Shown: positions 1 to 18,488 of the stretch, in pieces
Numbering within the stretch: position 1 is the stretch's first letter
Layout: every line of letters starts with the position of its first letter
DNA from: Gammaproteobacteria bacterium
Lineage (GTDB): Bacteria > Pseudomonadota > Gammaproteobacteria > UBA4575
Length of the DNA: 64,000 nucleotides
Assembly: GCA_965220875.1 (NCBI GenBank)
Contig: OZ244849.1
Location: 585,791 to 649,790 of the forward strand
Direction of reading: 5' to 3'
The notes under the pieces: model-generated
Seen by the model: only the letters and a program-made list of their open reading frames with translations
The model's database searches: none
Told to the model about the DNA's origin: nothing
Made by a program: the position numbers and the translations under genes

Positions 1-670
1 GGAAATCGACCGCCCGTGTCCCGTCGCGCCAGTCGAGAACGGTATCGATTATGGTCGACCACCTGGATTCAGAGAATGCCAAGCTATTCAGGGAAAAGGG
101 AGAATAGCTGTCAGGTGTGCCGGAGGTCGGAATGGCAAACATCACCATATCTGCTCCCCAGGCCACACCATGCCCGGCACTCATAAAGTCGGCCAAGCGT
201 GGGGCGGCCGCCACGCTGGCCACGGAGGTCCCGTGGGAAAACTGGCTGCCATCTTCGTCAGCCTTGCCGAACAGAAACACCTCGTCGATGGCTGCCCCAT
301 CCAGCAACAAGTGGTCCTGGTCGATGCCGGTGTCGACAAATCCGATCGTCACACCTGTTCCTGGCGCAATGTCCTGTCCCTTGATCAGTTCAACGTGGGC
401 ATAGGCGCGGTCTGCATGGATGGCCGACAGCCCCCACTGGTTTTTGAAGTTCCTCTGTTCACGGTAGTCTTCTGCATGGAGGTCCGCCTCGTCCTGGTAC
501 ACATCCGGCTCAAGGCAGCCCATGTCGTGGGTGCGGATGCAGGCTGGAAGATCTGGTGGTGCACTTACGATTTCGCTTCCGCTTCCTCCTCCGCCGCCTC
601 CGCCACCGCAGGCAGAAAGGGACACCACCAGGACAATCAGTACGGCAACGCAGATCTTCTCAGGCGGCAG
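1..670 (-). CDS. subtilisin-like (S8) serine protease lipoprotein, 5' portion only; the gene runs off the window start
   Basis: Hand translation of the minus strand gives a lipoprotein signal (KICVAVLIVLVVSLSAC), then a GGGGGGGSGS linker, then the subtilase Asp box (GFVDTGID) and His box (SHGTSVAS). No canonical ATG lies just upstream of the signal peptide: in-frame candidates are CTG at 670 and TTG at 736, and the nearest ATG is at 853. The start is therefore uncertain. This gene is not in the supplied ORF track. Confidence 0.6.
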   Translation of the reverse strand, partial: MPPEKICVAVLIVLVVSLSACGGGGGGGGSGSEIVSAPPDLPACIRTHDMGCLEPDVYQDEADLHAEDYREQRNFKNQWGLSAIHADRAYAHVELIKGQDIAPGTGVTIGFVDTGIDQDHLLLDGAAIDEVFLFGKADEDGSQFSHGTSVASVAAAPRLADFMSAGHGVAWGADMVMFAIPTSGTPDSYSPFSLNSLAFSESRWSTIIDTVLDWRDGTRAVDF

Positions 671-1394
671 AGCCTGGCCTGGATACCCCGATTGCCGGCA
701 AGGCCTGCGTGAAACCGAAGTGCCCGGCCGTTGCAATGCAAGTGGATTTCCAAGGAACCCTGATGCGGTTGCGTTGTTCCGGTCCCGGGCAGGCGGAGAC
801 CCGGTGCCTGTATGCGATGCTATCCATGCGCGAGCACTTCCGGTCCCGGGCATGACAGGGCTTCTCGAGTATCGAGATGCGGTCCTGCCCGCCGTTTTAC
901 CCCGCTTTGCGTTCATTCCGAAATATCCCGGCCATTGCTGAAAAATAACATCACCGACGGGTTGAACAGTCCGTAACGGTACCCCTTCAGAGGGAGCTTC
1001 ACCTGATCGGGCTGCACCACACACCGGCTGCTTCATGCACAGGATGTTCTCCTGGCGATGCTTCGGGTCATTATAGAGCACTCGGGGAAAGAGGTGTCAT
1101 GCCATGTTTTGATAACCTGACGCTTTCAAGCGTTCGTCGATGTACTGACGGGTACGCGACGGCTTCATGCTCCATGGCAGACAATGTGCGCGCGTAGGTT
1201 CCGGAACCGGTTGCTTGACCTGTCTTCGCAGTGGACCCCCTGCACGGTTCCGTAAAGTCACCCTGTGCCGCGATCAGCATGCCTGATCATCCTTTATAGT
1301 ATGATGGAGGTGGATCTGTACAGACCGGGTTGTCCTAGAATTCCAAATCATTCCAGAAACCCTTACTTGCACCAGCCAGCCGAGCATCAATGCC

Positions 1395-2243
1395 ATGAAC
1401 TGCCCTGCAGATGAGAGAACCCCTGCACGCGACCCGCACCGGTTCATCAACGATCTCGAACCCGAGATGATTGATCGCCTGGTGGAAAGGCTGGAGAGCC
1501 GTGGCAAGGACCGGGTATTCACCCGCCTGTTCGACAACTATTCATCCAGGCTTGGTTTGCAAAGTAACGCACAGGTGCTTGAGATCGGGTGCGGGACCGG
1601 TGTCGTGGCCCGTGCGCTGGCCCGCAAGAGCGATGCTGACATTCACGTCACGGGCATCGATCACAGCCCGGCACTCATCAGGGTGGCGTATCGGCTTGCC
1701 GACGAGGAAGGGGTTGCCAACCGGCTCACGTTCGAGGTCGGCGACGCGCATGCGCTTCCCTTCCGGGACGCCTGCTTTGATGCAGTGATCCTGCACACCG
1801 TGATCAGTCATGTCGGCGAGCCCGCCACCGTGCTCGAAGAGGCGAGAAGGGTGCTGTGCCCAGGCTGCACGCTGGTGGTGTTCGACGGCGATTACGCCTC
1901 GCTTACCTACGGATACCCGGACGTCGAGATGGGGCGCAAGATGGACTGGGCCCTGGCACGAGCGGCGTTCAACAATCCCGTTGTCATGCGTGAGTTGCCC
2001 CGGTTGCTGGCTTCCACCGGCCTCGACCTGCATGACACCCTGGCTGACGTGGTATCCGAAATCGGTCAGGCCAGTTATTTCCGTGGCCTGGCAGAAACCT
2101 ATGCACCGCTGATCGCACCGGCCGGACTGGCACGGCAGGCCGAAGTGGATGCCTGGATGGATGTGCAACGCAGGGCCATGCAGGAGAATCGCTTCTTTGC
2201 CTCCTGCAACTATTACAGTGTCCTGGCCCGACGGGCAGGCTAG
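1395..2243 (+). CDS. class I SAM-dependent methyltransferase
   Basis: 282 aa ORF with methyltransferase motif I (LEIGCGTGVVARAL) and an acidic post-I motif. The start may be an internal Met. Confidence 0.7.
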   Translation: MNCPADERTPARDPHRFINDLEPEMIDRLVERLESRGKDRVFTRLFDNYSSRLGLQSNAQVLEIGCGTGVVARALARKSDADIHVTGIDHSPALIRVAYRLADEEGVANRLTFEVGDAHALPFRDACFDAVILHTVISHVGEPATVLEEARRVLCPGCTLVVFDGDYASLTYGYPDVEMGRKMDWALARAAFNNPVVMRELPRLLASTGLDLHDTLADVVSEIGQASYFRGLAETYAPLIAPAGLARQAEVDAWMDVQRRAMQENRFFASCNYYSVLARRAG

Positions 2244-2477
2244 ACCACCCGGTGATGCCCGCCAGCCGACCAGGCTGGCACCCGGATGACCTTTGCCACC
2301 TGCTGACCGGAACAGGGTTTTTCAGGCAGGATGAGTGGGCTGGCCGACGCGATGGACCTCTTCTGGACCCGGGGTGAAGCCAGGGTGCGTGCAGTCAGGA
2401 TGAGCCTTTGACCACCTCGTCCAGGGCTTTTTCCGCATCGTGGAAGATTTCCTGCAGAATCTGCATGCGCTTGAGCT

Positions 2478-2687
2478 TCAGCCCTCGGCCTGGTGCCACA
2501 ATACCTCCTTGATCTTTTCGACCACCGCACTGCGCATCTCGGGCGAAAGGGTCTGGCCACTCCTGTATTCGTGCTTTTCGATCACGTAATCGGCAATGCC
2601 GACGATGTTGTCCGCCACGATGCTGAAATCGACAGACTCCCTGACAGCCTCCAGCATGTCGTCCTCGTTCTTATCCTGTTCTACCAT
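2478..2687 (-). CDS. small acidic hypothetical protein (69 aa)
   Basis: The ORF begins MVEQDKNEDD and is preceded by a strong SD (AGGAGA) 6 nt upstream. No recognisable domain. Confidence 0.4.
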   Translation of the reverse strand: MVEQDKNEDDMLEAVRESVDFSIVADNIVGIADYVIEKHEYRSGQTLSPEMRSAVVEKIKEVLWHQAEG

Positions 2688-2909
2688 TTTATTCTCCTGG
2701 TTTGGCTGCATTCATGCAGGCCCGATGCGTTCACCGACCGAATTTCAGACAGCCGTGCCGGCCACACTCCGCCCGTTACCTGCAAAGTTTTTTCTGTAAC
2801 CGGGTAGCACATTCTGCTACAAGAGGTGTCTGGCAGCAAACGGGAACAGGCTGTCACCGAACCTGAACCGGTGCCGGATTCAAAACTCTCATGAATGAAA
2901 GCCGCATCC

Positions 2910-3740
2910 TCACTGCCTCGCTCCCCCGTATGCGCCCTGCAACCCCTGGGGGTGATCGAACACCCCGCCCACTTCCTCGTGGTCAGGACCGTAGAACGCA
3001 CCCGATAACCGGTTGTTGTCGGCATGGTAACGGCTGAACTGCCCGTCCTCTACCGGCATGTTCTCAAAAATCATGTCGGTATAGGCCTGTCCGGTGGTGG
3101 TATTGGCCATGCCCGTCAAATGCACGTCCGCCAATACCTGGGTACCTATGGTCACGGAAATACTGGCATCGCCCGTCACGACGGATTCGAGATCACTTGC
3201 AATATTGTGATCCCTTGCCGTTGCAAAGCCTGTCCAGGTGGCCTCCACCTCGGGATTGGTATTCGTTGCGTTCCCGGCAATGGTGCCGTAGGTTTGGATG
3301 ACCCCCTGGTCCGGGTCAGTTTCATGCTTGTAAAGTACGACTGTCGATGCAAAGAAACTGTATTCCATCCAGCCTCCGTAACTATGCAGGTCATTGAACC
3401 TGCCGATGACATACTCCACCGCCGTATTGATGCTGTTGGTATCCGGCAGCACTATCGTCTCCTCAGGCAATAACCTGAAAACCTTGTTTGCACGCAGGAA
3501 AGCCGTGTAGCCCACGGAACAGAACAGGCCCCTGCATTCCACGGAAACACGTACCGGCTCTGTTTGGCCGGGCACCCAGTTGATCCTGTCCGTGGAAAGC
3601 AGAAGATTGGCATTCGAGGCGATCCGCTCATAGTCCTGTATCGCAACATATTCAGGTGGAGGAACGGGGACATCACTGGACCCCCCGCCCATGCAGCCAG
3701 TGACAAGCATGCACAGTGCGAGCGTGATGCAGTATTTCAT
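2910..3740 (-). CDS. TbpB-family surface lipoprotein (C-lobe-like 8-strand barrel)
   Basis: Lipoprotein signal MKYCITLALCMLVTGC is followed by a GGGSS tether. The C-terminus LSGAFYGPDHEEVGGVF...GAYGGARQ matches the TbpB/LbpB/fHbp barrel motif (GxFYGPxAEExGG...FGAKxQ). Confidence 0.7.
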   Translation of the reverse strand: MKYCITLALCMLVTGCMGGGSSDVPVPPPEYVAIQDYERIASNANLLLSTDRINWVPGQTEPVRVSVECRGLFCSVGYTAFLRANKVFRLLPEETIVLPDTNSINTAVEYVIGRFNDLHSYGGWMEYSFFASTVVLYKHETDPDQGVIQTYGTIAGNATNTNPEVEATWTGFATARDHNIASDLESVVTGDASISVTIGTQVLADVHLTGMANTTTGQAYTDMIFENMPVEDGQFSRYHADNNRLSGAFYGPDHEEVGGVFDHPQGLQGAYGGARQ

Positions 3741-4054
3741 TCCAAAGCCCCCAGAATCCGGAAGCCGAACGGGAAGCCTCAAGCTGAACATCGGTTGGGA
3801 TTACCCTGTTATTATTGAATCGGGTTTCTGTCCACGCAGCATCTTACCAGATTGCAAAACAGACAGGTACGGGTAGTGCTCCCTGATCCCGCCAACGTGA
3901 TTTTGCACGATGCCTGGACCAGGCTGGGAAGAGACGGTCACCCTGTCGTGTACAATCCATGTCGAAACACCGGGTTCTCTCTCGCGGTGTTCGCCTGTCG
4001 CACAAGCCAGGTCGGGACGTTGCCGTAGCGCGGGAAACAAGCAAAGAAAGGCCA

Positions 4055-4597
4055 ATGAACCGCTTTCTGTATTTTGCCTACGGGTCCAACCTGTTAACCG
4101 CAAGACTCGCGGACAGGTGCCCCTCGGCACGATATCATGCAACTGCATGCACCGATGATCTTGCAATCGAGTTCTCCAAGGAAAGCAGGGATGACGGATC
4201 AGGGAAGGCAACGCTCGTGCCGTCTCACGGGCATCGCCTGTACGGTGTCGTGTACGAGGTGGAGCTGGGTGAACTCGAAATCCTGAACCGGGTCGAATCG
4301 GGCTACGACCTGAGGCATGACTTCAAGGTGACCCTGCCGGATACGGATACCCCCTTGACCGTAAAAACCTATATCGCACCCGAACAGAGCAGAAAGCCTA
4401 GTCTGAAACCGTTCGACTGGTATCTCGCACTGATCGTTGCCGGGGCCATCGAGCATGGATTTCCCCAAGCCGAGATCCGTGCCTACCAAAACATGGAATT
4501 CCGGACCGACAATGAGGGAGAAAACAAGTACGAGGCCTTGAGGCAGCTCAACGAGGCAGGGTTTGAGAGCATAGAACAGGTATTGAATCGAAAATGA
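4055..4597 (+). CDS. gamma-glutamylcyclotransferase-like (AIG2/GGCT fold) protein
   Basis: YFAYGSNL motif at the N-terminus. An RBS-like AAAGAAAGG lies upstream of the Met at 4055. Confidence 0.6.
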   Translation: MNRFLYFAYGSNLLTARLADRCPSARYHATACTDDLAIEFSKESRDDGSGKATLVPSHGHRLYGVVYEVELGELEILNRVESGYDLRHDFKVTLPDTDTPLTVKTYIAPEQSRKPSLKPFDWYLALIVAGAIEHGFPQAEIRAYQNMEFRTDNEGENKYEALRQLNEAGFESIEQVLNRK

Positions 4598-4656
4598 TCT
4601 GTCACGGTTTTCAGATTGGCCGGTGTGGCATCCGGCACCGAGACAGATCGTAGCCT

Positions 4657-6201
4657 TTAGCTGCCGTTGTACGGCACCAGCAGCGAGTTGCCCGTCATCG
4701 ACCTGGGCTGGCGGATTCCCATGAGCTGCAGGATGGTGGGAGCCACGTCGCTCAGGCCCCGGCCGTTCGCCAGGTCCCAGGGCTCGCCGTCCATCACCAG
4801 GCAGGGAACCGGGTAGGTGGTGTGCTGCGTATGCGGCTCACCGGTATGCGGATCGATCATCTCGTCACAATTGCCATGGTCCGAGGTCAGCACCACGGAT
4901 ACGCCCTGCTCCTCTGCGGCATCCAGCACCCTCCCGGTATGAAAATCCATGGCTTCCAGGGCGGCAATCACGGCATCCTGCTTGGCCGTGTGGCCCACCA
5001 TGTCGGCGTTGGCAAAGTTGGTGACGATCAGGGCATAGGCCTTGTTGCGCAGGGCCTTGATCACCTCGTCGGCTACTTCCTCGGCACTCATCTCCGGCTG
5101 CAGGTCGTAGGTTGCCACCTTGGGGGAGGGTACGATCTTGCGATCCTCTCCCTCGTAGGCACCGTCGAAACCGCCGTTCAGGAAGTAGGTTACGTGAGGG
5201 TATTTTTCCGTCTCCGCACAGTGAAACTGGTGCAGCCCTGCCTTGCTGATGATTTCAGACAGGTTGGTTTCCGGCCTGCGGGGCGGAAAGGCCACGGGAC
5301 CGAGAAACCGCTTGCTGTACTTGGTCATTTTGGTAAGCCTGACCGGCCGGTACTCCGGACCCCGGTCAAAGGCGTCGAACTCCTTCTGCGCGAGCGCCTT
5401 GCTGAGCTGCAGCGGCCGGTCGCTGCGGAAATTGCAGAAGATCACCTCGGACTGGGCGGTCATGGGCTGCGCCGCATGCAGCACGGTGGGCAGGATGAAC
5501 TCGTCCGTCTCGCCCCGGGCATAGGCGTTGCGCACGGCATCCAGGGCCGTCCCCGCGCGCCTGCCCTCCAGCTGCACGAGTGCCTGCCAGGCGAGGAACG
5601 TGCGTTCCCACCGGCGGTCACGGTCCATCGCGTAATACCGCCCCATCACGGTGGCAATGGTGCCACCGGCCTGTTTCAGGTGCGGGTTGAGAATTTTGAT
5701 GTACTTTCGCACGCTCTTCGGCGGCGCATCGCGCCCGTCGGCGATGACGTGCACCAGGGGGCGGACCCCGTGCTCCTGGCACAGCTTCACCAGCGCGATG
5801 ATGTGGTTGATGTGCGAGTGCACACCGCCGTCCGACAGCAGGCCGATCAGATGCAGGTGGCCGTCGCCGTCCTCGGCTTTCTTGACGGCACGCACCAGGG
5901 GTGAGACCTCGAACAGGCTGCCGTCTGCAATGGCATCGTTGATGCGGATCAGGTCCTGCCGGATGACCGCTCCGCAGCCGATGGTCATGTGCCCGACTTC
6001 CGAGTTTCCCATCTGGCCTGCAGGCAGGCCCACCGCCTCGCCGGAGGCTTCCAGCACCGTGTGCGGATAGCGTGAGAAGTACTCGTCCAGGCGCGGAGTG
6101 CGGGCCCTCAGCACGGCATTGTTGGCCTTGCTGGGATTGACGCCGAACCCGTCCAGGATGACGAGTGCGACGCGTTTACGGATTTTTGTTTTCTTGGGCA
6201 C
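4657..6201 (-). CDS. gpmI: 2,3-bisphosphoglycerate-independent phosphoglycerate mutase
   Basis: 514 aa, iPGM-like throughout (VALVILDGFG, metal-binding His/Asp regions). Confidence 0.9.
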   Translation of the reverse strand: MPKKTKIRKRVALVILDGFGVNPSKANNAVLRARTPRLDEYFSRYPHTVLEASGEAVGLPAGQMGNSEVGHMTIGCGAVIRQDLIRINDAIADGSLFEVSPLVRAVKKAEDGDGHLHLIGLLSDGGVHSHINHIIALVKLCQEHGVRPLVHVIADGRDAPPKSVRKYIKILNPHLKQAGGTIATVMGRYYAMDRDRRWERTFLAWQALVQLEGRRAGTALDAVRNAYARGETDEFILPTVLHAAQPMTAQSEVIFCNFRSDRPLQLSKALAQKEFDAFDRGPEYRPVRLTKMTKYSKRFLGPVAFPPRRPETNLSEIISKAGLHQFHCAETEKYPHVTYFLNGGFDGAYEGEDRKIVPSPKVATYDLQPEMSAEEVADEVIKALRNKAYALIVTNFANADMVGHTAKQDAVIAALEAMDFHTGRVLDAAEEQGVSVVLTSDHGNCDEMIDPHTGEPHTQHTTYPVPCLVMDGEPWDLANGRGLSDVAPTILQLMGIRQPRSMTGNSLLVPYNGS

Positions 6202-6246
6202 TGTGAAACCGGTTGTTTCTACGCGCGCGATTATGCACCAATTGGA

Positions 6247-7167
6247 TCAGCGTGTCCCCCCGTCCTTCTCATCCCCGTCGTCTTCGGGCTTTTTGAGGGG
6301 TTCGCCTTCGCCCATTTCCTTCGCCTGTTCCTCGGCAGACAGCGGGACCTGGGACGCTTTCTTGCGCCAGGACCGCCTCGGCTTGCGGGCTGGTTTTTCC
6401 CCGGCTGCATCCTCGTCCTCCTCTAGGGACCTGGGCACCCACAGGCGCGACAGCAGCAGGCCGATCTCGAACAGCAGCCATACCGGGATGGCCAGCAGCA
6501 CCTGGGAGATCACGTCCGGCGGTGTCAGCAGCATGCCGACGATGAAGGCCACCACGATCACGTAGGGGCGCTTGGAGGCCAGCTTTTTCGGCGTGGTCAC
6601 GCCCAGCCTGACCAGCACCAGGGTCACTATCGGTACCTCGAACGCAGCCCCGAAGGCGATGAAGATCTTGATCACGAAATCCAGGTAGCGCCCGATGTCC
6701 GTCATCACCGCCACCCCTTCCGGGGCCACCCTCGTGAAGAAGCCGAACACCAGGGGGAAGACGATGAAGTACGCGAAGGCCATGCCCACGTAAAACAGGA
6801 TCGAACTGGACACGAGGAGCGGGAACACCAGCCGCTTTTCGCTGCCGTACAGGCCCGGTGCGACGAAGGCCCAGGCATGGTAGAGGATGATCGGGATGGC
6901 CAGCACGATGCTGAGCAGGAACACGAGCTTGAACGGGGTGAGGAAGGGCGAGGCCACTTCGATCGCCACCATCGAGCTGTCCTCCGGCAGGTGCGCCATC
7001 AGCGGGCCGGCCAGCCAGGCATACAGGGTGTTGGCAAACGGGAACAGGCCCAGCATGACGGCCAGCACGCTGCCCGTCACCCACAGCAGCCGGCTGCGCA
7101 GCTCGAACAGGTGCGACAGTAGGGATTCCTGCTTGGCCTCGGGGTCCCCGGAGTCAGTCGGCTTCAT
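6247..7167 (-). CDS. tatC: twin-arginine translocase subunit TatC
   Basis: N-terminus LLSHLFELRSRLL and six-TM architecture. Downstream of tatA/tatB. Confidence 0.9.
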   Translation of the reverse strand: MKPTDSGDPEAKQESLLSHLFELRSRLLWVTGSVLAVMLGLFPFANTLYAWLAGPLMAHLPEDSSMVAIEVASPFLTPFKLVFLLSIVLAIPIILYHAWAFVAPGLYGSEKRLVFPLLVSSSILFYVGMAFAYFIVFPLVFGFFTRVAPEGVAVMTDIGRYLDFVIKIFIAFGAAFEVPIVTLVLVRLGVTTPKKLASKRPYVIVVAFIVGMLLTPPDVISQVLLAIPVWLLFEIGLLLSRLWVPRSLEEDEDAAGEKPARKPRRSWRKKASQVPLSAEEQAKEMGEGEPLKKPEDDGDEKDGGTR

Positions 7168-7522
7168 TCTTTTCAGGCCCCGGCTTCACCGGTTTTTCCC
7201 TGGCGGATTCGATCTGTTCCTCGACGGCCTTGACCAGCGTGTCATCCCCGTCGTCGTCCAGCTCCTGCTCGATCTCCCGCTGCGTGCCTTTCAGGATTTC
7301 CTTCAGCTCACCGATTTCGTTCTGCTGCTTGTCCAGGATTTCCTTCAGCTCGGCCGCGCGGATCTCGGACTCGATATCCGCACGGAAGGCCTCGAACATG
7401 CGCCGGGCCTTGCCTACCCACCTTCCGGCCTGGCCCGCCAAGCGCGGCAGCTTTTCCGGCCCGACCACCAGCAGCACGACCACCATGATGAGGGTGAGCT
7501 CCCAAAAGCCGAAATCAAACAT
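7154..7522 (-). CDS. tatB: twin-arginine translocase subunit TatB
   Basis: MFDFGFWELTLIMVVVLLVVGPEKLP N-terminus, then an amphipathic helix and an acidic tail. Confidence 0.85.
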   Translation of the reverse strand: MFDFGFWELTLIMVVVLLVVGPEKLPRLAGQAGRWVGKARRMFEAFRADIESEIRAAELKEILDKQQNEIGELKEILKGTQREIEQELDDDGDDTLVKAVEEQIESAREKPVKPGPEKNEAD

Positions 7523-7534
7523 GGTTCGAGAAGG

Positions 7535-7717
7535 CTACTCTTTCGTCGAGGGCTCATCCGTCTTTGAATCTTCGGGCTCGCTTTCATCTTTCACGGACTT
7601 GCGGAAATTCTTGACCGCGCTGCCGATGTCACCACCCATGTTGCGTAGTTTCTTCGTGCCGAAGATCAGCAGTATGATCAGCAGTATGATCAGTAACTGC
7701 CAGGGGCTGATTCCCAT
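7535..7717 (-). CDS. tatA: twin-arginine translocase subunit TatA
   Basis: 60 aa: [28 protein letters not shown]. Confidence 0.9.
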
Positions 7718-7753
7718 AACGTCTACTCCCGTTCAGTAAATAAGTCTCTGCGG

Positions 7754-8083
7754 TCAACCTGCGGACTTGCGTTGGGCTTTCTCCACGAGCCCCGAGACGC
7801 CGAAACGCCCGGCCAGCTCGTCCAGTACCGCCTCGTGGCCCAGGCCCTTGTAGGCCAGCAGCACCATGCAGTGAAACCACAGGTCCGCCACCTCGTGGAC
7901 CAGGTGTTCGAGGTCCTCCCCGCCACCCGCCTCCACGGTTTCTTCCGCTTCCTCGCTGATTTTAGCAAGAATCTTCTCGAGTCCGCCTGCATACAGCCCT
8001 GCCACGTAGGACTCCCCGACCGGAGCCCCCTTGCGCTGATCCAGGATCTCGGTGATCTGGTGCAGGATATCCTCAGTGCTCAT
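7754..8083 (-). CDS. hisE: phosphoribosyl-ATP pyrophosphatase
   Basis: HisE-like (ILHQITEILDQRK...LWFHCMVLLA). Start chosen at MSTEDIL. No hisI domain is present. Confidence 0.8.
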   Translation of the reverse strand: MSTEDILHQITEILDQRKGAPVGESYVAGLYAGGLEKILAKISEEAEETVEAGGGEDLEHLVHEVADLWFHCMVLLAYKGLGHEAVLDELAGRFGVSGLVEKAQRKSAG

Positions 8084-8142
8084 TATCTTTATCCACCCGT
8101 TGTCCGCCAGCATCTACAGTACCACATGCCGGGCCCGAATCC

Positions 8143-8940
<798 letters not shown>

Positions 8941-9007
8941 GGGCGGGTGGAGGAATGTTCAGTGGTTCAGGCCGATCCCGGGACCGGCCGTTCAGCGGTG
9001 TTGCATC

Positions 9008-9751
9008 TCATGCCTCGCCGGTCGCATCATCCGCCAGCGCCTGGGCCTGTTCCAGCTTGATGGTTCCCTCGTACAGGGCTCGCCCGACGATGACCCCGAC
9101 GATGCCTTCCTCGTCACACTCGCACAGCCTGCGGATGTCGGCCTCGTCGGTGACGCCGCCCGATGCGATCACCGGGATGTGCACGGCGCCTGCAAGCTCT
9201 GCGGTCGACTCGACGTTCAACCCCTGCATCATGCCGTCGCGGCTGATGTCCGTGAACACGATGGCCGCCACCCCGTCGGCCTCGAAATGCTGTGCCATGT
9301 CGATGGCGTCGTGGTGGGACAGCTTGGACCAGCCGTCGATCGCCACCTTGCCGTTGCGCGCATCCAGCCCGACGATGATGTGCCCCGGGAATTCCAAGCA
9401 CAGGTCGTTGACGAAATGCGGGGTGCTGATGGCACGCGTGCCGAGGATCACGTACTGCACGCCGATGTCCAGGTAGTTTTGCACGGTATCCTCGTGGCGG
9501 ATGCCGCCGCCGACCTGGATCGGCAGATCGGGGTGTTTGGAGGCGATGGCCTCGACGATCCCGGCATTCTGCGGAGTGCCTTTGGAAGCTCCGTCCAGGT
9601 CCACGATGTGCAGGCGCCTGGCACCGGCCTCGACCCAGGTGTCCGCGACGCTGACCGGGTCATCGGAGAACACCGTGACATCATCCATGGCACCCTGGCG
9701 GAGGCGCACGCATTTGCCGTCCTTGAGGTCGATGGCTGGAATGACGATCAT
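9008..9751 (-). CDS. hisA: ProFAR isomerase
   Basis: MIVIPAIDLKDGKCVRLRQG. Confidence 0.95.
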   Translation of the reverse strand: MIVIPAIDLKDGKCVRLRQGAMDDVTVFSDDPVSVADTWVEAGARRLHIVDLDGASKGTPQNAGIVEAIASKHPDLPIQVGGGIRHEDTVQNYLDIGVQYVILGTRAISTPHFVNDLCLEFPGHIIVGLDARNGKVAIDGWSKLSHHDAIDMAQHFEADGVAAIVFTDISRDGMMQGLNVESTAELAGAVHIPVIASGGVTDEADIRRLCECDEEGIVGVIVGRALYEGTIKLEQAQALADDATGEA

Positions 9752-9778
9752 CTTCCGGTTCTTCGTATCTGTGCGGCC

Positions 9779-10420
9779 CTATCCGTCCCAGTGCATGAAG
9801 TTGCTGAGCAGCCGGAGACCTGGGTCCGCGCTTTTTTCGGGATGGCACTGCATGGCGAACACGTTGTCCTGCGCGATCACGGAGGCGAACGGGATGCCGT
9901 AGTCGGTCGTGCCTGCAACCAGGTCCGGCCGGGTACACTGCACGAAGTAGCTGTGCACGAAGTAGAAATAGCTGGACTGCGGGATGCCGGCCCAGAGCGG
10001 ATGATCCTGCTCCTGGCGGATGCTGTTCCAGCCCATGTGCGGAATCTTGTAGCGCCCCTCGCCTGCGCCCGCGGATATGTGGTTGCCGAAGTACTTCACC
10101 CTGCCGTCATACAATGCCAGGCATCCGGTGCCTTCATTTTCCTCGCTGTCCTGCATGAGCACCTGCATTCCCATGCAGATCCCCAAGAACGGTTTTTGCC
10201 GGGCCGCCTCCCTCACGGCATCGAACAGGTCCAGTGCATGCAGGGCGCGCATGCAGTCAAGTGCCGCACCCTGACCCGGGAATACCACCTTGTCACTTGT
10301 GGCGATTTCTTCTGGATTCGATGCGACCCGCACGCGGTCTGCAGGCCCCGCAACATGCTCGACCGCCTTTATTACAGAATAAAGGTTTCCTATTCCGTAA
10401 TCAATTATGGCAAGGCGCAT
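9779..10420 (-). CDS. hisH: imidazole glycerol phosphate synthase glutaminase subunit
   Basis: Starts MRLAIIDYGIGNL. The track ORF extends falsely upstream to 10609. Confidence 0.9.
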   Translation of the reverse strand: MRLAIIDYGIGNLYSVIKAVEHVAGPADRVRVASNPEEIATSDKVVFPGQGAALDCMRALHALDLFDAVREAARQKPFLGICMGMQVLMQDSEENEGTGCLALYDGRVKYFGNHISAGAGEGRYKIPHMGWNSIRQEQDHPLWAGIPQSSYFYFVHSYFVQCTRPDLVAGTTDYGIPFASVIAQDNVFAMQCHPEKSADPGLRLLSNFMHWDG

Positions 10421-10469
10421 GGAAGTGACGGTCGGTACACGGGCCTGCTCGCAGGCACAGGAAGCGGGT

Positions 10470-11063
10470 TCAGAGGCTGCCCTTGGTCGACGGGATCTCT
10501 CCTTGCATGCGGGGGTCGTCTGTGACGGCGATGCGCAGTGCACGGCCGAAGGCCTTGAACACGGTCTCGGCGATATGGTGCGAGTTGGACCCCGACAGGT
10601 TGTCCACATGCAGGGTCACGTTCGCATGGTTGACAAATCCCTGGAAGAACTCGTGGATGAGATCGACATCGAAATCGCCCACCCGCGCACGCGGGAACTG
10701 CACCCGAAATTCAAGACCCGGGCGCCCGGAAAAATCAATCACCACCCGGGAAAGCGCTTCGTCCAGCGGGACATAGGCATACCCGTACCGGTAGATGCCC
10801 TGCTTGTCGCCAATGGCCTGTGCAAAGGCTTGCCCCAGCGTGATGCCGACGTCCTCGACGGTATGGTGCGCATCGATTTCCAGGTCCCCCTTGGCATGCA
10901 GGTCAAGATCCAGCCTCCCGTGGCGGGCCACCTGGTCCAGCATGTGCTCGAAAAAGGGCAGACCGGTGTCGAGTTTCGCCTGACCGCTGCCGTCCAGGTT
11001 CAACTGGATCACAACCTGAGTTTCCTTGGTATTGCGTTCAATGCTTGCAGTTCGCGTGCTCAT
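10470..11063 (-). CDS. hisB: imidazoleglycerol-phosphate dehydratase
   Basis: [16 protein letters not shown]...FEHMLDQ. Confidence 0.95.
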
Positions 11064-11113
11064 GGCTGCGGGGTGATCGGGGTTTCAGTTCATGCGTTTT
11101 CGTATCCCGGCGG

Positions 11114-11551
11114 TTACAGCTGCAGCCAGAAGGTCACCGGGCCGTCATTGACCGAGTGCACCTGCATGTGCGCACCGAACACACCGGTCTTCACTCTACC
11201 ATATTTCGACTTCAGGTGGTCTGCAAACCGCTCGAACAGTGCTTTCGCACGTTCGGGGGAAGCCGCCTGCGAGAAGTTCGCACGCAGCCCCTTGCGGGTA
11301 TTGGCGGCCAGCGTGAACTGCGGGACCAGCAGCACCTCGCCCTTGGCCTGTTCGACACCGAGGTTCATGCGGTCTACATCGTCTGCGAAGACCCGGTAGG
11401 CGAGCACCCGCTCGCCCATGCGCACGAGGATGGCCTCGTCGTCCTGCGGCTGCAACGCAACATACACCAGGAGTCCTGAACCGATTGCAGCGACGATTTC
11501 ATTCTCAACACTCACGCTTGCCGAGGCTACGCGTTGCAGCAGCGCGATCAT
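11114..11551 (-). CDS. dtd: D-aminoacyl-tRNA deacylase
   Basis: MIALLQRVASASV...SVNDGPVTFWLQL. Internal start at the Met corresponding to 11551. ATGA overlap with pip. Confidence 0.9.
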   Translation of the reverse strand: MIALLQRVASASVSVENEIVAAIGSGLLVYVALQPQDDEAILVRMGERVLAYRVFADDVDRMNLGVEQAKGEVLLVPQFTLAANTRKGLRANFSQAASPERAKALFERFADHLKSKYGRVKTGVFGAHMQVHSVNDGPVTFWLQL

Positions 11552-12504
11552 GCAACCTCTCCCATGAATTGTTGTGTGGCCCGAATCAGGGCATCGATGA
11601 TTTCGGGTTCGGTTGCAGAGTGCCCCGAGCACGGTGCGACCTTGAGTTCTGATCCGGGCCAAGCCCGGTGCAGCACCCAGGCCTGCTCGATGGGACACAC
11701 CATGTCATAGCGCCCGTGCACGATCACACCGGGAATGCCTTCGAGACGGTGGGCCTCCTCGAGCAGCTGGTTGTCGCGAAGGAAGGAATCGTGCATGAAA
11801 TAGTGGCACTCGATCCTCGCCAGGCTCAGGGCGGTGGGCTCGTGTTCAAAATGATCCAGCACCGAGGGCTTGGTGACCAGGTTGGAGGTAGCACCTTCCC
11901 AGACCGACCAGGCGCGTGCGGCGGCAAGCCGCACATTTGCATCGTTCGAGGTCAGGCGCCGGTAATAGGCACCGACCATGTCGTGGCGTTCACCCTCGGG
12001 GATGATGCGCACGTACTCTTCCCACAGCTCCGGGTGGATCTTGCCCGCACCCTCCTGGTAGAACCACTGGATGTCCTGCCTGCGACACAGGAAGACGCCG
12101 CGCAGGATAAGTCCTGTGACCCGCCCGGGGTACGCCTCGGCATAGGCCAGTCCCAGCGTGGAACCCCACGAGCCGCCGAACACCAGCCACCGGTCGATAC
12201 CCAGATGTTCGCGGATGCGCTCGATGTCGGCGACCAAGTCTTGGGTCGTGTTCTCGCGCAATTCCGCATGCGGGGTGGAACGCCCACAGCTGCGCTGGTC
12301 GAACAGGATAATCCGGTAGTGCTTGGGGTCGAAGAACCTTCGATGAAATGCCTCGCATCCTGCACCCGGCCCGCCATGCAGAAACAAGACGGGGGTGCCG
12401 TCCGGGCTGCCGCATTCCTCGACCCAAAGCGAGTGCAGCCCGGACACCTTTAACATGAACGTTTGGTACGGTTCGATTTCAGGATAAAGGGGCAGGTATT
12501 TCAT
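11548..12504 (-). CDS. pip: proline iminopeptidase (alpha/beta hydrolase)
   Basis: MKYLPLYPEIEPYQ...GGSWGSTL nucleophile elbow. Confidence 0.85.
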   Translation of the reverse strand: MKYLPLYPEIEPYQTFMLKVSGLHSLWVEECGSPDGTPVLFLHGGPGAGCEAFHRRFFDPKHYRIILFDQRSCGRSTPHAELRENTTQDLVADIERIREHLGIDRWLVFGGSWGSTLGLAYAEAYPGRVTGLILRGVFLCRRQDIQWFYQEGAGKIHPELWEEYVRIIPEGERHDMVGAYYRRLTSNDANVRLAAARAWSVWEGATSNLVTKPSVLDHFEHEPTALSLARIECHYFMHDSFLRDNQLLEEAHRLEGIPGVIVHGRYDMVCPIEQAWVLHRAWPGSELKVAPCSGHSATEPEIIDALIRATQQFMGEVA

Positions 12505-13349
12505 GACTGAATTTTGGGAGGAGTGTTGACCAATGTTTCCCGAGTGTGAATCGCTGAAAGTATACCGCAGCATACCCGTTGATCTGTCCGGATACTGATG
12601 TGCCTTTAATGCTCTCAAATCGTATGTGTGATTACTTTTACATTTCATAACACCCTGCTACAGAATTTGAAGATTCGCGGGTGTCGTGTCCGGTTTCTTT
12701 TTTGACTGACTGGTCATGACGCCTGATATTCCACCGACAATAGACTCAAGCTATGGACACGATAGCTAATACCTGTTCCTGAATGTCGATCCCGTCTACA
12801 TTACCCAGACATCGTTGACGTACCGAATGCTGACCAGTGCATGGTGTTCTGTTACCTCTTCAGCCGCAACCTGTCTGCAACCACTGGCAAGCATTCAGTG
12901 ACAGTAGCTTTCATCGTCTTCCCAGGTGCTAATTTCATTCCTTGTCCTGAAATTTCCATGCATTTCAATTGTGTAAACAGCCGTTGTCGTTCTTTGCAAG
13001 GTTTCTTAAAAGGAATGATGACGAATGGATTCATAGTGCCGGTAAGCTGTGATATGATGTATCTACCTTGTCTACAGGTTGGAGGAGCAGCACATGGGTG
13101 TTGCGTTCATGCAACGAGGCATGCCCATAAACCCGCCCGGAATGACACTAATAGCGTGTTTTATAAGCGGTTTGTTTCAGGAAACTTTCACAAAAAAGTT
13201 GTTGCAGTCTGTTTGGAGACCATGTAGATTTGGCATAAAATCATACAGGCACGCTTATCGTTTGATGCAAGTCAGGCGAGAGTGTGTATGCTTTTACTAA
13301 CGTTAGGTTAAATTCAAGGCCTATTATTTTAGGAAGGGAGCTTCGAAAG

Positions 13350-15122
13350 ATGTCTACACTATCTAAGAAATTGGTGGCGCTTTTCGCGGTCATCATATTT
13401 TCCATGGCGATGTATGGATGCGGCGGCGGCGGCAGTAGCGGCCCTGCGACAATGACGCCGACTGAACCGACTGAGCCAACTGAACCGACTGAACCGACTG
13501 AACATACTGTTGACATAGGTGGTCTCACAGTTGCAGCTGGTGAATATGAAGTTCCGGCAGGCGGCACTCTTGATGTGGGAGAGGGTGAAACCGAGGTTAC
13601 GCTTTCATGCCCAGGGGATACAGCCTGTACAGTAACAGTAGCAGATGACGGTACCGCCACTTCAACCGGTGGCGCAGTCACTGCGGCATTGTCAGCAGCT
13701 GCCATGCAAGCCATTGCTGATCGGGAAGAAGCAGAGAGAATGGCTGCTGTAGAAGCTGCTACTAAAGCGGCTGGAACGAAGAGAATGGCCATCGCGGCCG
13801 AGGCAGCGCAATCGGCTGATGCCGGTCTTGGTGGCAGTGACCATGTGAATACAGACGGCACACCTGGCAATGCAGATGATCCTTATAGCTTGGCTATCAC
13901 CCGTGACAGGGATGGAACAGAGATCAAGATTACTGATCACGGGATGACGGGCGATGATGATCCGAAGTTCACACAGGCCATGGATTTAGGTGGCGGACGC
14001 ACCATGCACACGCGCGCGATGGAAGCCGATGACGAAGGTAATGTTGAGGATGAAGTCGTGATCGTCAGCACTGACATTGAAGGGCCCAAAGGGGTAGCGT
14101 TCGCGATGTGGCAGAATGCAGCTGGCGATACGCCTCAAACACTGGCCGTCAGCAGCGTCACCGGCTCAGCTGCCGATACGGCAGCAGGCCAGACTAACAA
14201 TGCTCTGACTATCGCGGAGGACACAACTCTTACCGGAGATGCGAATACAAATCTGATGTTTGCGCGCTCCACCACGGATGGAGCTCTCAACTACACCGTC
14301 AACGACACGAGTACCGCGGGTACGGATGAGGCTTTGCACGACGGCACCTATAACGGGGCTGAGGGTACATATCGCTGCACCGGTACTACAATTTGCACCG
14401 TCACCTTCAACGACAAGGGTATGGTTGTTGGCAACACTGGTGGTTGGGTCTTCGTTCCAGATAAGGGCGCCACCTCAGACCAGCCGGACTACGACTACCT
14501 GCACTACGGCGTCTGGCTCAAGAGGACCACCGATAAAGATGGTGCAGTTACTTACAACGAGGTCGAGACCTTTGCTGGTTCATCGCTTGCTGCTTCCGAC
14601 GGGAGCGAGCTCAACTCAGTCGAAGGTAGTGCGTCGTACGAAGGTGGTGCCACGGGCGTGTATGTACACGAAGTGCGTAATCCGGACGGCACGGAAGCAT
14701 CAGCCACTTTCGGCCACTTTACTGCGGATGTCTCACTGACGGCGTATTTCGCTCAGACTGGAGATAACCCTGAAACAACAGGCGTCACCGAAGCGGGGAC
14801 TGTCGCGCCGAACTTGCTCAACACCGTCAGTGGCTCGATCAACAACTTCATGTTATCTGGGGGAGAAGCCAACACGTGGTCGGTAACCGTACAGGCCAGC
14901 CGTGCAGGTAGTGCAAACACTTTCTCCGGTACGGCCAAGGGCGGATCGCCCAGCAACGATGGGTCGATTAGCGGAACTTACCACGGCCCAACGCCTGAGA
15001 CTACGGCTACTAATGACCCTACAACTGCCAGAACGGCTCCGGGTTCGATGGTCGGCGAGTTCAATTCCTTCTTCACCAACGGCTCTGTAGCCGGTGCCTT
15101 CGGGGCGAGAAAGGACGAATGA
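13350..15122 (+). CDS. large TbpB-family surface lipoprotein with PTE repeats (candidate Slam substrate)
   Basis: Good SD (AGGAAGGGAG). Signal MSTLSKKLVALFAVIIFSMAMYGC, then a GGGGSSG tether and (PTE)x5. An internal duplicated motif CPGDTACTVTVADDG / CTGTTICTVTFNDKG. C-terminus GTYHGP...SVAGAFGARKDE is the TbpB-like barrel ending. Confidence 0.7.
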   Translation: MSTLSKKLVALFAVIIFSMAMYGCGGGGSSGPATMTPTEPTEPTEPTEPTEHTVDIGGLTVAAGEYEVPAGGTLDVGEGETEVTLSCPGDTACTVTVADDGTATSTGGAVTAALSAAAMQAIADREEAERMAAVEAATKAAGTKRMAIAAEAAQSADAGLGGSDHVNTDGTPGNADDPYSLAITRDRDGTEIKITDHGMTGDDDPKFTQAMDLGGGRTMHTRAMEADDEGNVEDEVVIVSTDIEGPKGVAFAMWQNAAGDTPQTLAVSSVTGSAADTAAGQTNNALTIAEDTTLTGDANTNLMFARSTTDGALNYTVNDTSTAGTDEALHDGTYNGAEGTYRCTGTTICTVTFNDKGMVVGNTGGWVFVPDKGATSDQPDYDYLHYGVWLKRTTDKDGAVTYNEVETFAGSSLAASDGSELNSVEGSASYEGGATGVYVHEVRNPDGTEASATFGHFTADVSLTAYFAQTGDNPETTGVTEAGTVAPNLLNTVSGSINNFMLSGGEANTWSVTVQASRAGSANTFSGTAKGGSPSNDGSISGTYHGPTPETTATNDPTTARTAPGSMVGEFNSFFTNGSVAGAFGARKDE

Positions 15123-15441: not shown

Positions 15442-16062
15442 TCATCCAGTCCAGAGCGCAGTGAGGACAGAAGTAGTTGTAGAAGTGCTATCCGGCCAGT
15501 GCGGGTGCGCATCCCAGACGGTGAGGCGGACGGGACAGAGGTTCCAGAACTCGGTTCTTGAGTTGTCGTTAGCCCGTTCGATAATGCCGTTGATCTGTGG
15601 GCTTTTCGGTAGCAGCACGGCTAGCGGGAGGTCGAACACTTCACAGGTAGCCTTGAAGTCCGCCCGGAACTCATTGCCGTCGACCTGGACCGAGCGTAGC
15701 GGATACGGCAGGTCTTCACGGACGGCCTCAAGAAAGCGTCTGGTGTTGCGGGCCATAACCTGAGAATAGACCCGTGTCGCCATCTGTTTCCCGACGGAAC
15801 AGGTGCCTTGACTTCTTTCAGTGTGTTACCCTCGCGCAAGACCGACATGTGATCGATCTGCGCCAGTTCGCCCAGGGTGCGTGCCTTTGCACCGTACTTC
15901 CAGTTGTACAGGCTGCTCTAGGGCGCCGGCCTCGCTGCTGCCTGGAGCCCGAAGCTGGTTATAGGCTTGCAGGGTGCGGTGGCGCTCGACCGCAAACTCG
16001 GCAACGGCTTCGACCACCTTGAAGCTTTTGTACGATTGAACGCGAAGCGATTTAATATGCAT
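15442..16062 (-). mobile_element. degraded IS481-like (rve/DDE) transposase, frameshifted fragments
   Basis: Fragment 15783..15442 has FLEAVRED...VQVDGNEF...PKSPQINGIIERANDNSRTEFWN, matching the rve TDNGxEF and SPQxNGxxER motifs. Fragment 16062..15826 has HRTLQAYNQLRAP, similar to the YNxxRPH C-terminal motif. Fragments are broken by an in-frame stop and are out of order, so this is a relic. Confidence 0.55.
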
Positions 16063-16452: not shown

Positions 16453-17817
16453 ATGAAAAAAATACCGGTTAGCCGCTTTCTTGTATCCATCACTCTGCTG
16501 TCGCTGTCGGCTATGGGGACTGCATTTGCCAGCAGCGCAGAACTTCAGCCATCGCACGCAGATGAAAGCAAGGCCCGGGCACTGCTCAATAACCGGCAAT
16601 TTGACGAGGCTCTGACAATTTTACGCCCCCTGGCAAAAGCACATCCCGAGCACATCAACCTTCACTTCCTGCTCGGTCTGGCTGCCATCGAACGCTCCCG
16701 CCTGGCACAAACTTCGAAGGAAGAGCAGGAAGCCCTGCTGGATGAAGCCATTGCCACCCTGCACAGGCTACTGGTCAATCATCCAAAGCTTGAACGCGTA
16801 CGGCTTGAGCTCGCCCGTGCATTCTTCTACAAGAAAGAGGATTCCCTGTCGCGCAAGCATTTCAAGCGGGTGCTGGCTGGAGATCCACCGCCCCCCGTGG
16901 CGGAAAATATCCAGCGCTTCCTCAACGAAATCCGGGCCAGAAAGCGCTGGTCGGTGTATCTCGGCAGCACGCTCAAGCCCAGCTCCAACATCGGCCGAAA
17001 TTCCGAGACCGAGATCATCAACATTTTCGGTCTGCCCTTTCGCCGCGATGAGGTTGAAAAGAAGAAATCAGGGGTCGGTCTTTCTGTCTGGGCCGGTGGC
17101 GGCTACTGGCATCCCCTGGCCGAGCGCCTTCGGCTTCGCTTTGGCACCGATCTCGCCCGCGAGGAATACCCGGGAAAAGAGGAGGACCAGTCCTTCCTGG
17201 GAGTACACGCCGGCCCTGAATGGCTCGTCAATGCAAGAACCAGTGTCAGCCTGCTCGCCGATGCGCGGCATCTCTGGCGCATCACCTCACCCTATTACCT
17301 TGACTTCGGGGTACGCTCGGAAATCAAGCACCGGGTGAACCGGCGCCTCTGGCTGAAAGGGCAGGCCTCCTGGCATGACCGCGACTACCGGAAGCTCGAC
17401 TACCTGGATGGCTCGACCATGAATCTATCGTTGAACGGGACCTGGATCGCCTTGCCCACCGTGCGACTGGAGGGTGCCCTTGGCTATGCCGATGAGCACA
17501 CGAAATCCAAGACCTGGCGCCATGACACCCGCTGGGGCCGTATCGGCACGCTGGTGGCCCTGCCACGCGGCTTTACCGTGGGCGGCAGTGCCGAGATTCG
17601 AAGAACCCGCTACGAGGGGAACTGGTTCCCATTTACCAGCGGCGTCCCCCGCAAGGATCGCACCAATATCTATCGCGCCTCGGTATACAACCGGGCTTTC
17701 ACGCTGTACGGGTTCAGCCCTCAATTCGTGATCACCCACGAGGAAAAGGATACCAACTCGCAGGTCTACGGCTATGACAGCACCGGCGGCGAGATACGGT
17801 TCGTGCGCCAGTTCTAG
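16453..17817 (+). CDS. TPR plus DUF560-like outer-membrane beta-barrel; putative Slam surface-lipoprotein translocon
   Basis: 454 aa. Sec signal (MKKIPVSRFLVSITLLSLSAMGTAFA), about 150 aa of TPR-like helices, then about 300 aa with alternating beta-strand character ending in an aromatic C-terminus (RFVRQF). The size and architecture match Slam, and the gene sits next to a TbpB-like lipoprotein. DUF560 membership was not checked by HMM. Confidence 0.65.
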   Translation: MKKIPVSRFLVSITLLSLSAMGTAFASSAELQPSHADESKARALLNNRQFDEALTILRPLAKAHPEHINLHFLLGLAAIERSRLAQTSKEEQEALLDEAIATLHRLLVNHPKLERVRLELARAFFYKKEDSLSRKHFKRVLAGDPPPPVAENIQRFLNEIRARKRWSVYLGSTLKPSSNIGRNSETEIINIFGLPFRRDEVEKKKSGVGLSVWAGGGYWHPLAERLRLRFGTDLAREEYPGKEEDQSFLGVHAGPEWLVNARTSVSLLADARHLWRITSPYYLDFGVRSEIKHRVNRRLWLKGQASWHDRDYRKLDYLDGSTMNLSLNGTWIALPTVRLEGALGYADEHTKSKTWRHDTRWGRIGTLVALPRGFTVGGSAEIRRTRYEGNWFPFTSGVPRKDRTNIYRASVYNRAFTLYGFSPQFVITHEEKDTNSQVYGYDSTGGEIRFVRQF

Positions 17818-17897: not shown

Positions 17898-18479
17898 TCA
17901 GCGCCTCTGTGCCACCAGCCAGGCCGTATCCCGCACGCCCTGGCCGGTATCCCCGACGCGGCCCAGTTCCCGGTAGGCCAGTACATGCAGCGGTGCGAAC
18001 AGTTCCAGCAACTCGTTGGCACCCAGCCGGTATGCAGGATTGCTTGGACCCTCATCGGAGACCTTTTCATGAATGAAGGTCTGGTAGTACAGCAAACCAT
18101 TTGGCCTCAATGCCTCGGTGATCGCACCGCACAGCCCGCGCTCCAGGTAAAAACTGATACAGATCACATCGAAGGTGCCCGGTGCAGGCGGGGATTCCTG
18201 CACGTCTCGAACCTCAGTCTGTAGGCAAAGCCCCTCGGACTCGGCCTTGCGTGCAAGGGTCTCGATCGCCTCCCCGGAGATGTCCCAGGCATGCGCATGC
18301 AGCCCCCGCCGGGCCAGGAACAGCGCATTGCCGCCGCGCCCGCAGGCCAGATCCAGGGCCGTGCCGGTTTCAGGCAACAGGAAGGTGTATTCCCTCAAGA
18401 CCGCGCACGCGCCCGGCTTTCCCGCGGGGGCCTCCCTGTACCTCCGGTTCCACTTCCCGCGGGCCTGCTCATCGGCCAT
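17898..18479 (-). CDS. SAM-dependent methyltransferase (TehB-like)
   Basis: LDLACGRGGNALFLA motif I, 193 aa. Confidence 0.7.
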   Translation of the reverse strand: MADEQARGKWNRRYREAPAGKPGACAVLREYTFLLPETGTALDLACGRGGNALFLARRGLHAHAWDISGEAIETLARKAESEGLCLQTEVRDVQESPPAPGTFDVICISFYLERGLCGAITEALRPNGLLYYQTFIHEKVSDEGPSNPAYRLGANELLELFAPLHVLAYRELGRVGDTGQGVRDTAWLVAQRR

Positions 18480-18488
18480 GACCGGTCC

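Follow-up and report, generated by a model that had tools for sequence, protein, structure and literature searches.

A predicted single-lobe TbpB/hemophilin-fold lipoprotein, probably Slam-dependent, encoded apart from the Slam gene in a gammaproteobacterial genome

The window analysed here is a stretch of 64,000 nucleotides of contig OZ244849.1 (Gammaproteobacteria bacterium, assembly GCA_965220875.1), and the gene under study is the reading frame at positions 2910–3740 on its minus strand. The encoded protein of 276 aa (hereafter the target) is probably a single-lobe surface lipoprotein of the cargo class of the surface lipoprotein assembly modifier (Slam), or type 11 secretion system (T11SS). 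Four features by which a Slam-dependent lipoprotein or T11SS cargo is recognised were present, i.e. a lipobox, a C-terminal barrel, a handle preceding it and a PF04575 gene in the genome. Judging from fold and comparative genomics, the target is very probably displayed at the surface in a Slam-dependent manner. An initial annotation, made from the sequence alone, had proposed a TbpB-barrel fold for this protein and had taken it for a second Slam substrate, encoded outside the island in which the Slam gene and a 590-aa lipoprotein (the island cargo) lie. The fold was confirmed by Pfam, by a profile search of the PDB and by AlphaFold with Foldseek; the second, off-island single-lobe substrate was supported by the fold and by linkage to Slam in one close locus (L015; loci of the family are numbered with the prefix L) and for seven distant relatives, surface display remaining a prediction.

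The fold was examined at the sequence level with the hidden Markov model (HMM) of PF01298 (TbpB_B_D), the check that the initial annotation had named. The model matched aa 225–275 of the target with E 2.9e-5 and 25.0 bits, i.e. the match was found and the gathering score of 26 was narrowly missed, and it matched 33 of 33 aligned family members at E<=1e-3 (best 6e-8), with no other Pfam family being matched, a result well above chance. Distant relatives in L059, L036 and L025 passed the gathering score (30–33 bits). With a profile of the family, searched against 177,635 PDB sequences, significant matches were obtained solely to TbpB/LbpB (best E 1e-5), restricted to the ending GxFYGPxxEExGGxF...GAFGA.

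The AlphaFold model of the target had a mean predicted local distance difference test score (pLDDT) of 68.7 and a predicted template modelling score (pTM) of 0.67, with values of 75–95 in the barrel and of about 45–55 for residues 24–100. Upon Foldseek search of this model against the PDB, all 41 matches at E<=1e-3 were known Slam/T11SS cargo: the best was A. baumannii hemophilin (7re4; E 1.5e-6, template modelling (TM) score 0.45–0.51), and the others were the TbpB C-lobe 5kkx, full TbpBs, LbpB N-lobes and fHbp. H. haemolyticus hemophilin (6om5, E 1.2e-3) followed just behind this significant set. The alignments to hemophilin and to the TbpB C-lobe covered about 250 columns. From the Pfam, PDB-profile and AlphaFold/Foldseek results, the target was therefore assigned one handle-plus-barrel lobe.

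The N-terminus of the target, MKYCITLALCMLVTG-C16-MGGGSSDVPVPPP, begins with a short, positively charged n-region and a hydrophobic core, which are followed by the lipobox V-T-G-C and a tether of Gly, Ser and Pro. Both parts of the LVTGC-GGGSS tether described initially, the lipobox and GGGSS, are present, with an additional Met between the lipobox Cys and GGGSS; the internal ...HSYGGWM... and the C-terminal ...LSGAFYGPDHEEVGGVFDHPQGLQGAYGGARQ, directly followed by the stop codon, occur as they had been quoted. The lipobox was judged by rule, not by SignalP: C16 is kept in >=90% of 33 family members, all orthologues have [LVI][ASTV][GAS]C, and residue +2 after the lipobox Cys is Met or Gly, not Asp. 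The tether of the island cargo, C-GGGGSSGP, is of the same type. In the N-terminal sub-domain (mean column entropy 1.00), C69, C74 and the STDRINWVPG motif are almost invariant. Strands of the handle were modelled with moderate confidence (pLDDT 60–78) at aa 95–101, 104–112, 116–124, 128–137 and 148–156, and those of the barrel (pLDDT 75–95) at aa 168–177, 187–198, 202–213, 223–231, 234–237, 245–250, 256–263 and 267–275. Conservation in the close family is highest in the barrel (mean column entropy 0.67; last three strands 0.58) and lowest in the handle sheet (1.30). Published T11SS cargo is organised in the same way: secretion is directed by the barrel, which is also the main determinant of T11SS specificity, and the effector is the N-terminal part (bioRxiv 10.1101/2023.03.15.532718; PMC12282271). 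All Slam-dependent lipoproteins share an 8-strand C-terminal barrel (PMC5449769).

As suggested by the lipobox, the target would leave the cytoplasm via Sec, receive its lipid at Cys16 and reach the inner leaflet of the outer membrane by way of Lol. The conserved C-terminal 8-strand barrel would then be recognised by the window Slam, which would move the target across the outer membrane, a step to which the fold and the gene linkage in relatives point. At the cell surface, the protein would be anchored by its lipid and the short Gly/Ser/Pro tether, and the variable handle sheet together with the N-terminal sub-domain may be displayed as the ligand-binding face. Other probable substrates of this Slam are the 590-aa island lipoprotein and at least three paralogues encoded elsewhere in the genome.

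The Slam gene, the sole one within the window, proved to be real (PF04575, Table 1), and 96%-identical proteins are named 'surface lipoprotein assembly modifier' at NCBI; its distance of 10 kb from the target, as given initially, was only approximate, the start-to-start distances being 12.7 kb to Slam and 9.5 kb to the island cargo. Linkage of the family to Slam is best supported by comparison of genomes. In OY759361.1 (L015), a compact five-gene Slam cluster was found within 9 kb (L015 6346–14924), located between homologues of window 17898–23857 and window 11565–12504, i.e. between the same housekeeping flanks. A distance of 256 bp separates the orthologous Slam from the end of the family copy that shares 84% identity with the target, and the L015 cluster appears to be the 'undispersed' form of genes that are spread over 13 kb in the window. 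The order target, housekeeping block, cargo was found again in OZ242278.1 (L003) and in a Thiotrichales metagenome-assembled genome (MAG; L008). For distant relatives, a Slam gene lies directly downstream in L029, L036, L043, L053, L059, L064 and L070, and 7 kb off in L037 (PF04575 confirmed for the Slams of L029, L043 and L059). Among the top 120 Slam homologues listed, one Slam cluster per ~2-Mb contig was seen, with several family clusters (e.g. two or three) on those contigs; judged at this level, the arrangement fits one Slam with several dispersed substrates. This reading is sound but not novel, because a multi-substrate Slam is established for Neisseria Slam1, which displays TbpB, LbpB and fHbp, with tbpB and lbpB not near slam1 (PMC5449769).

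Table 1 Features of the target, of the Slam island in the window and of the compact Slam cluster in L015
Sequence	Feature	Position	Strand	Basis
Window	Target gene, single-lobe TbpB/hemophilin-fold lipoprotein, 276 aa	2910–3740	−	Stop codon 2910–2912; open reading frame and translation
Window	Target, lipoprotein signal peptide, aa 1–16: MK, hydrophobic core, lipobox V-T-G-C16	3693–3740	−	Sequence
Window	Target, flexible tether, aa 17–27 (MGGGSSDVPVP)	3660–3692	−	Low-complexity Gly/Ser/Pro; pLDDT <50–55
Window	Target, N-terminal sub-domain, aa 28–83: helix 29–43, short strands, C69-x4-C74 hairpin	3492–3659	−	AlphaFold, pLDDT 45–55
Window	Target, handle/'pedestal' sheet, aa 84–160, five strands, invariant G123-W124-M125	3261–3491	−	AlphaFold
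Window	Target, C-terminal 8-strand barrel, aa 161–276, ending GxFYGPxHEEVGGVF...GAYGGxR	2913–3260	−	AlphaFold, PF01298, TbpB/LbpB profile
Window	Island cargo, 590-aa lipoprotein, lipobox MYG-C, GGGGSS tether, extra N-terminal domains, C-terminal handle and 8-strand barrel	13350–15122	+	Translation; AlphaFold
Window	Transposase remnant between cargo and Slam	15442–15783	−	Weak rve_3 match, E 0.029
Window	Slam/type 11 secretion outer-membrane protein, 454 aa, proposed translocon	16453–17817	+	PF04575 E 4.9e-22; TPR_16/TPR_14; sub-threshold TPR_Slam
L015	Cargo2, 669-aa cargo paralogue	6346–8355	−	
L015	Family copy (tandem paralogue)	8997–9842	+	
L015	Family copy, 84% identical to target	9986–10831	+	
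L015	Slam, 65% identical to window Slam	11087–12454	−	
L015	Cargo1, 604-aa cargo	13110–14924	−	

A Pfam search of the island cargo gave no match. In its AlphaFold model (pLDDT 77.9; barrel strands between 427 and 588), handle and barrel are preceded by an N-terminal beta domain, a 37-residue helix and a second beta domain, and the best Foldseek matches were the TbpB C-lobe, TbpBs and hemophilin (best E 5.7e-5). On the Foldseek matches of both proteins, target and cargo are therefore both cargo-type. Of the two, the target is the closer to the TbpB barrel (Foldseek E 1.5e-6 vs 5.7e-5; cargo without Pfam match), as had been claimed from the sequence. Direct comparison of target and cargo was not significant with BLASTP (E 1.2), the family HMM did not match the cargo, and hhalign at full length aligned only the signal peptide/lipobox region. 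When hhalign was limited to the lobes, a collinear alignment of 193 columns resulted (E 1.4e-3, probability 17%), pairing CRGLFC with CTGTTIC, HSYGGWM with LHYGVWL, ATWTGF with ASYEGG, LSGAFYGP with ISGTYHGP and GAYGGARQ with GAFGARKD. The handle-like motif supposed to be shared thus exists in both proteins, as HSYGGWM in the target and LHYGVWL in the cargo, and is paired in the best alignment, with the weak support given by these values. Direct target–cargo homology was set aside as evidence, being not statistically secure. For the cargo family, 522 homologues were found, with a single unrelated Pfam match among the 120 listed, from MAGs labelled Nitrospira, Deltaproteobacteria, Defluviicoccus and Caldilineaceae. 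The transposase remnant between cargo and Slam is absent from the compact L015 cluster. Dips in GC content to 0.44–0.50 and to 0.49 were observed at 12.3–13.5 kb and 15.9–16.8 kb of the window, respectively.

As to the ligand, we would guess at a macromolecule or small molecule from the host or the environment that matters for life in an animal (sponge) host, not at classical TonB-coupled iron or haem piracy; a role in interaction with host or environment is suggested by the sponge- and coral-labelled MAGs, the several paralogues per genome and the variable handle. It is unlikely, by comparison, that the target is a lipid-anchored haemophore-like protein ('lipidated hemophilin-like group 2'), which would bind haem, porphyrin or metal at the handle and hand this over to a TonB-dependent receptor whose gene lies elsewhere, with Slam still as the route of export. 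The best structural match is a hemophilin (7re4), 6om5 was matched as well, and lipidated hemophilin-like cargo has already been predicted (PMC12282271), but the TM-score to hemophilin is just about 0.5 and the genetic context offers no counterpart. TonB-dependent receptor, haem or iron genes were found neither near the target nor among 128 open reading frames (ORFs) flanking family members in 67 loci; a Fur-box scan upstream of the target and 12 close homologues gave best scores of 9–12 of 19 bases, which is background; and the family alignment holds no invariant His or Tyr in aa 28–160, i.e. in handle and N-terminal sub-domain. The lack of receptor, Fur box and invariant His/Tyr makes a role of the classical haemophore or TbpB type less likely, short of excluding it.

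Compared with the known hemophilins (hemophilin/HphA/HrpC; 7re4, 6om5), the target likewise has a single lobe with N-terminal handle and C-terminal 8-strand barrel in about 240–280 aa, and the hemophilin barrel directs secretion by the cognate Slam/T11SS protein (bioRxiv 10.1101/2023.03.15.532718). The characterised hemophilins are, however, soluble, secreted and usually encoded beside a TonB-dependent receptor, whereas the target is lipidated, without a nearby receptor, Fur box or conserved haem-ligand residue, and shares 14–17% sequence identity with them; the traits of a hemophilin haemophore (soluble, haem-coordinating handle residue, linked receptor) were thus not found. TbpB/LbpB of Neisseria, Moraxella and Pasteurellaceae resemble the target as lipoproteins with a Gly-rich anchor peptide, a handle-plus-barrel lobe and the ending GxFYGPxxEExGGxF...GAFGA, and are Slam1-dependent with genes that can be distant from slam1 (PMC5449769). 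They consist of two lobes (500–720 aa) and work with the TonB-dependent receptor TbpA/LbpA, and sequence similarity to the target is limited to the last ~35–50 residues; because the target has one lobe in 276 aa and no receptor partner among the surrounding or flanking genes, it is not TbpB/LbpB. HpuA (Neisseria Slam2) and PM1514/PmSLP (Pasteurella multocida) are, like the target, small, single-lobe and lipidated, with a Slam dependence that is established for them (PMC5449769) and predicted for the target. Both are usually Slam-adjacent, as is the target homologue in L015 but not the target itself; the PDB sequence search detected no similarity to HpuA/PmSLP, and neither the HpuA ligand (haemoglobin) nor the PmSLP ligand has an indicated counterpart for the target. 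fHbp and NilC, which are likewise lipidated and have a C-terminal 8-strand barrel, are T11SS cargo whose task is to bind host factors instead of feeding a transporter; fHbp was among the Foldseek matches of the target, and the host-associated lifestyle of fHbp/NilC is comparable, but PF08794 (lipoprotein C) was not matched and the N-terminal domain architecture differs. In its predicted working, the target resembles the single-lobe Slam-dependent lipoproteins HpuA and PmSLP; in looks, it is most like a lipidated hemophilin.

Several points weigh against assigning the target to the Slam/T11SS cargo class. The PF01298 score stays 1 bit under the gathering threshold, with a match limited to the last ~50 aa; model confidence is low for aa 24–100, and TM-scores to solved cargo reach just 0.45–0.5. 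The equivalog cutoff of NCBIfam NF041636 'slam_lipo' was missed (17 bits vs 80; E 0.0056; aa 165–275 only), so the target is not a member of this equivalog. No Slam was found within 10 kb in most family loci (about 17 of 21 close loci and all Nitrospirales loci). The specificity of T11SS proteins for the cognate cargo barrel can also be high (bioRxiv 10.1101/2023.03.15.532718), and since the barrels of target and island cargo are barely alignable, service of both by one Slam is not guaranteed. In another reading, the target is an outer-membrane lipoprotein whose TbpB-like barrel faces the periplasm or uses another exporter, the Slam then serving the adjacent island cargo only. Cognate-barrel specificity, the strong divergence of the target barrel from that of the island cargo, the position of most paralogues away from any Slam and the ~390-aa secreted, non-Slam-like protein that always follows the family gene in the L017–L022 group would agree with it. 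We nevertheless regard it as quite improbable: each significant solved structural neighbour is Slam/T11SS cargo, the closest OY759361.1 homologue lies within a Slam cluster, at least seven further loci combine a distant relative with a Slam gene, and the end of the barrel is the most conserved part, as expected of a targeting signal. Surface display via Slam is thus retained as the preferred reading for the target.

The ORF was read from the MKY start. A second in-frame ATG lies upstream at 3791 and would yield 293 aa (17 residues more); because orthologues begin with MK/MR-YC in the family alignment, the MKY start was preferred, so that the lipoprotein of the initial annotation stands, with 276 aa in place of 277. 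The ratio of nonsynonymous to synonymous substitution rates (dN/dS) of the target versus its L003 orthologue was 0.24, showing purifying selection; iPGM, with 0.047, evolves more slowly. That the frame arose by chance or is a decaying pseudogene with a coincidentally TbpB-like C-terminus has a next to negligible probability and is already refuted by the conservation data: the sub-threshold Pfam score of the target copy and the NCBI label 'hypothetical protein' on all homologues might be cited in its favour, but 61 full-length homologues and 1712 cluster representatives at E<=1e-3 were found, the dN/dS is 0.24, the frame is intact with lipobox, Cys pair and barrel motifs conserved, and the barrel part of the model is confident.

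Base composition of the target departs modestly from its surroundings, in line with the description of its GC as somewhat below the flanks: GC is 0.557 vs a window mean of 0.617 (sd 0.048; 12th percentile of gene-sized windows), and GC at third codon positions (GC3) is 0.675 vs 0.83–0.88 in neighbouring housekeeping genes (iPGM, TatC). Slam (0.71) and island cargo (0.54) likewise have a GC3 below this range, a common trait that fits the proposed link of the target to Slam. Neighbours of the target in the window are GGACT-like, iPGM, TatC, TrkH and methyltransferase genes. A promoter/terminator scan around the target gave nothing beyond shuffled expectation, and no tRNA was found in window 1–20 kb. 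An 18-nt inverted repeat (83% complementary; 2869–2886/4623–4640), possibly due to chance, flanks a low-GC two-gene module that consists of the target and a GGACT/AIG2-like gene at 3959–4597. This GGACT-like gene stands beside the target in the window and L003 only; in L005, L008, L013 and L016, the family gene adjoins iPGM in reversed orientation and without the GGACT-like gene. The site of the target appears prone to rearrangement. Further along the window, at 27254–28327 and 28409–29368 on the minus strand, tandem paralogous outer-membrane beta-barrel proteins with signal peptides and the ends ...NLKYQF and ...NLKYRF are encoded, and homologues of this pair were seen near other family paralogues in L012 and L009.

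Among 5.8 billion proteins searched, 61 homologues of the target were found; of the full-length ones, nearly all have 261–317 aa and are 53–99% identical, and the name is 'hypothetical protein' wherever the source gives one. By exhaustive profile search of 1.84 billion cluster representatives, 1712 clusters were matched at E<=1e-3 and 975 at E<=1e-10. Window 582–12620 and the orthologous locus L003 (OZ242278.1) are collinear, with 92% nucleotide identity. Chromosomes of ~2 Mb hold several family clusters, e.g. P0006, P0028 and P0049 on a contig of 2,045,000 bp and four loci in OZ242278.1. Carriers of the family are MAGs with names that suggest sponge or coral holobionts, and Candidatus Spongiihabitans is a genus appearing in sponge-microbiome papers; a literature search for Slam or surface lipoproteins in sponges found nothing relevant.

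Going by record titles only, the family was also seen in Nitrospirales, where each genome has 3–4 copies, as well as in MAGs of Binatia and Alphaproteobacteria. In L059 (OZ244973.1, a 4.04-Mb chromosome-level Terriglobia MAG), a PF01298 lipoprotein (9371–10468, 32.9 bits) is directly followed by a PF04575 Slam (10338–11870, 52.7 bits), and the pairing of lipoprotein and Slam recurs in L053 and L070, contigs of Acidobacteriota MAGs by the same titles. T11SS is described in the literature as proteobacterial (PMC5449769; bioRxiv 10.1101/2023.03.15.532718).

Multi-lobe members were observed as well. P0302 is a predicted lipoprotein of 4105 aa (...LAALAAC-GSAS) with 14 tandem handle-plus-barrel lobes (each E 1e-20 to 1e-32), and 33 of the top 149 cluster representatives are >=650 aa, with one to five matched lobes, mostly two or more; to our knowledge, known cargo carry at most 2–3 lobes. 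In the L017–L022 paralogue group, which is 53–56% identical to the target, a conserved ~390-aa signal-peptide protein is always encoded directly downstream of the family gene (e.g. L017 10677–11999) and could be its partner. This ORF was considered as a divergent Slam and rejected, with no Pfam match and an hhalign E of 0.21 against the Slam alignment. Upstream of the family gene in Nitrospirales loci (e.g. L027, L028, L035, L061, L072 and L075), a divergently oriented AAA_5/CbbQ-NorQ-type ATPase was repeatedly noted; AAA_5 was matched by 12 of the 128 flanking ORFs, and its recurrence may be mere conserved synteny within Nitrospirales.

A wider reading of the family is put forward tentatively and as rather doubtful. 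The target might belong to a large unannotated Slam-type cargo superfamily that is specific to sponge and coral holobionts and has spread horizontally across phyla (Gammaproteobacteria, Alphaproteobacteria, Nitrospirales, Acidobacteriota/Terriglobia, Binatia), accompanied by Slam in at least one Terriglobia chromosome; its variable host-interaction surface proteins would occur as 3–4 dispersed paralogues per 2-Mb genome and as arrays of up to 14 lobes (4105 aa). If this were true, T11SS would be a general symbiosis system far beyond Proteobacteria.

Slam/T11SS cargo has been studied almost only in animal pathogens and one nematode symbiont. Against this background, the target is an ordinary, previously unannotated addition to a known class of secretion cargo that has multiplied in uncultured marine symbionts, and the finding is confirmatory more than surprising, the newer angle being the cross-phylum spread of the family with Slam and the multi-lobe giants. 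With it, a 'hypothetical protein' of the window becomes a predicted surface-exposed lipoprotein, and the Slam island would be only part of a larger Slam-cargo repertoire in this small symbiont genome. The family would extend the Slam/T11SS cargo class to uncultured symbionts of marine invertebrates, in which surface proteins of this kind may take part in recognising the host or in capturing nutrients.

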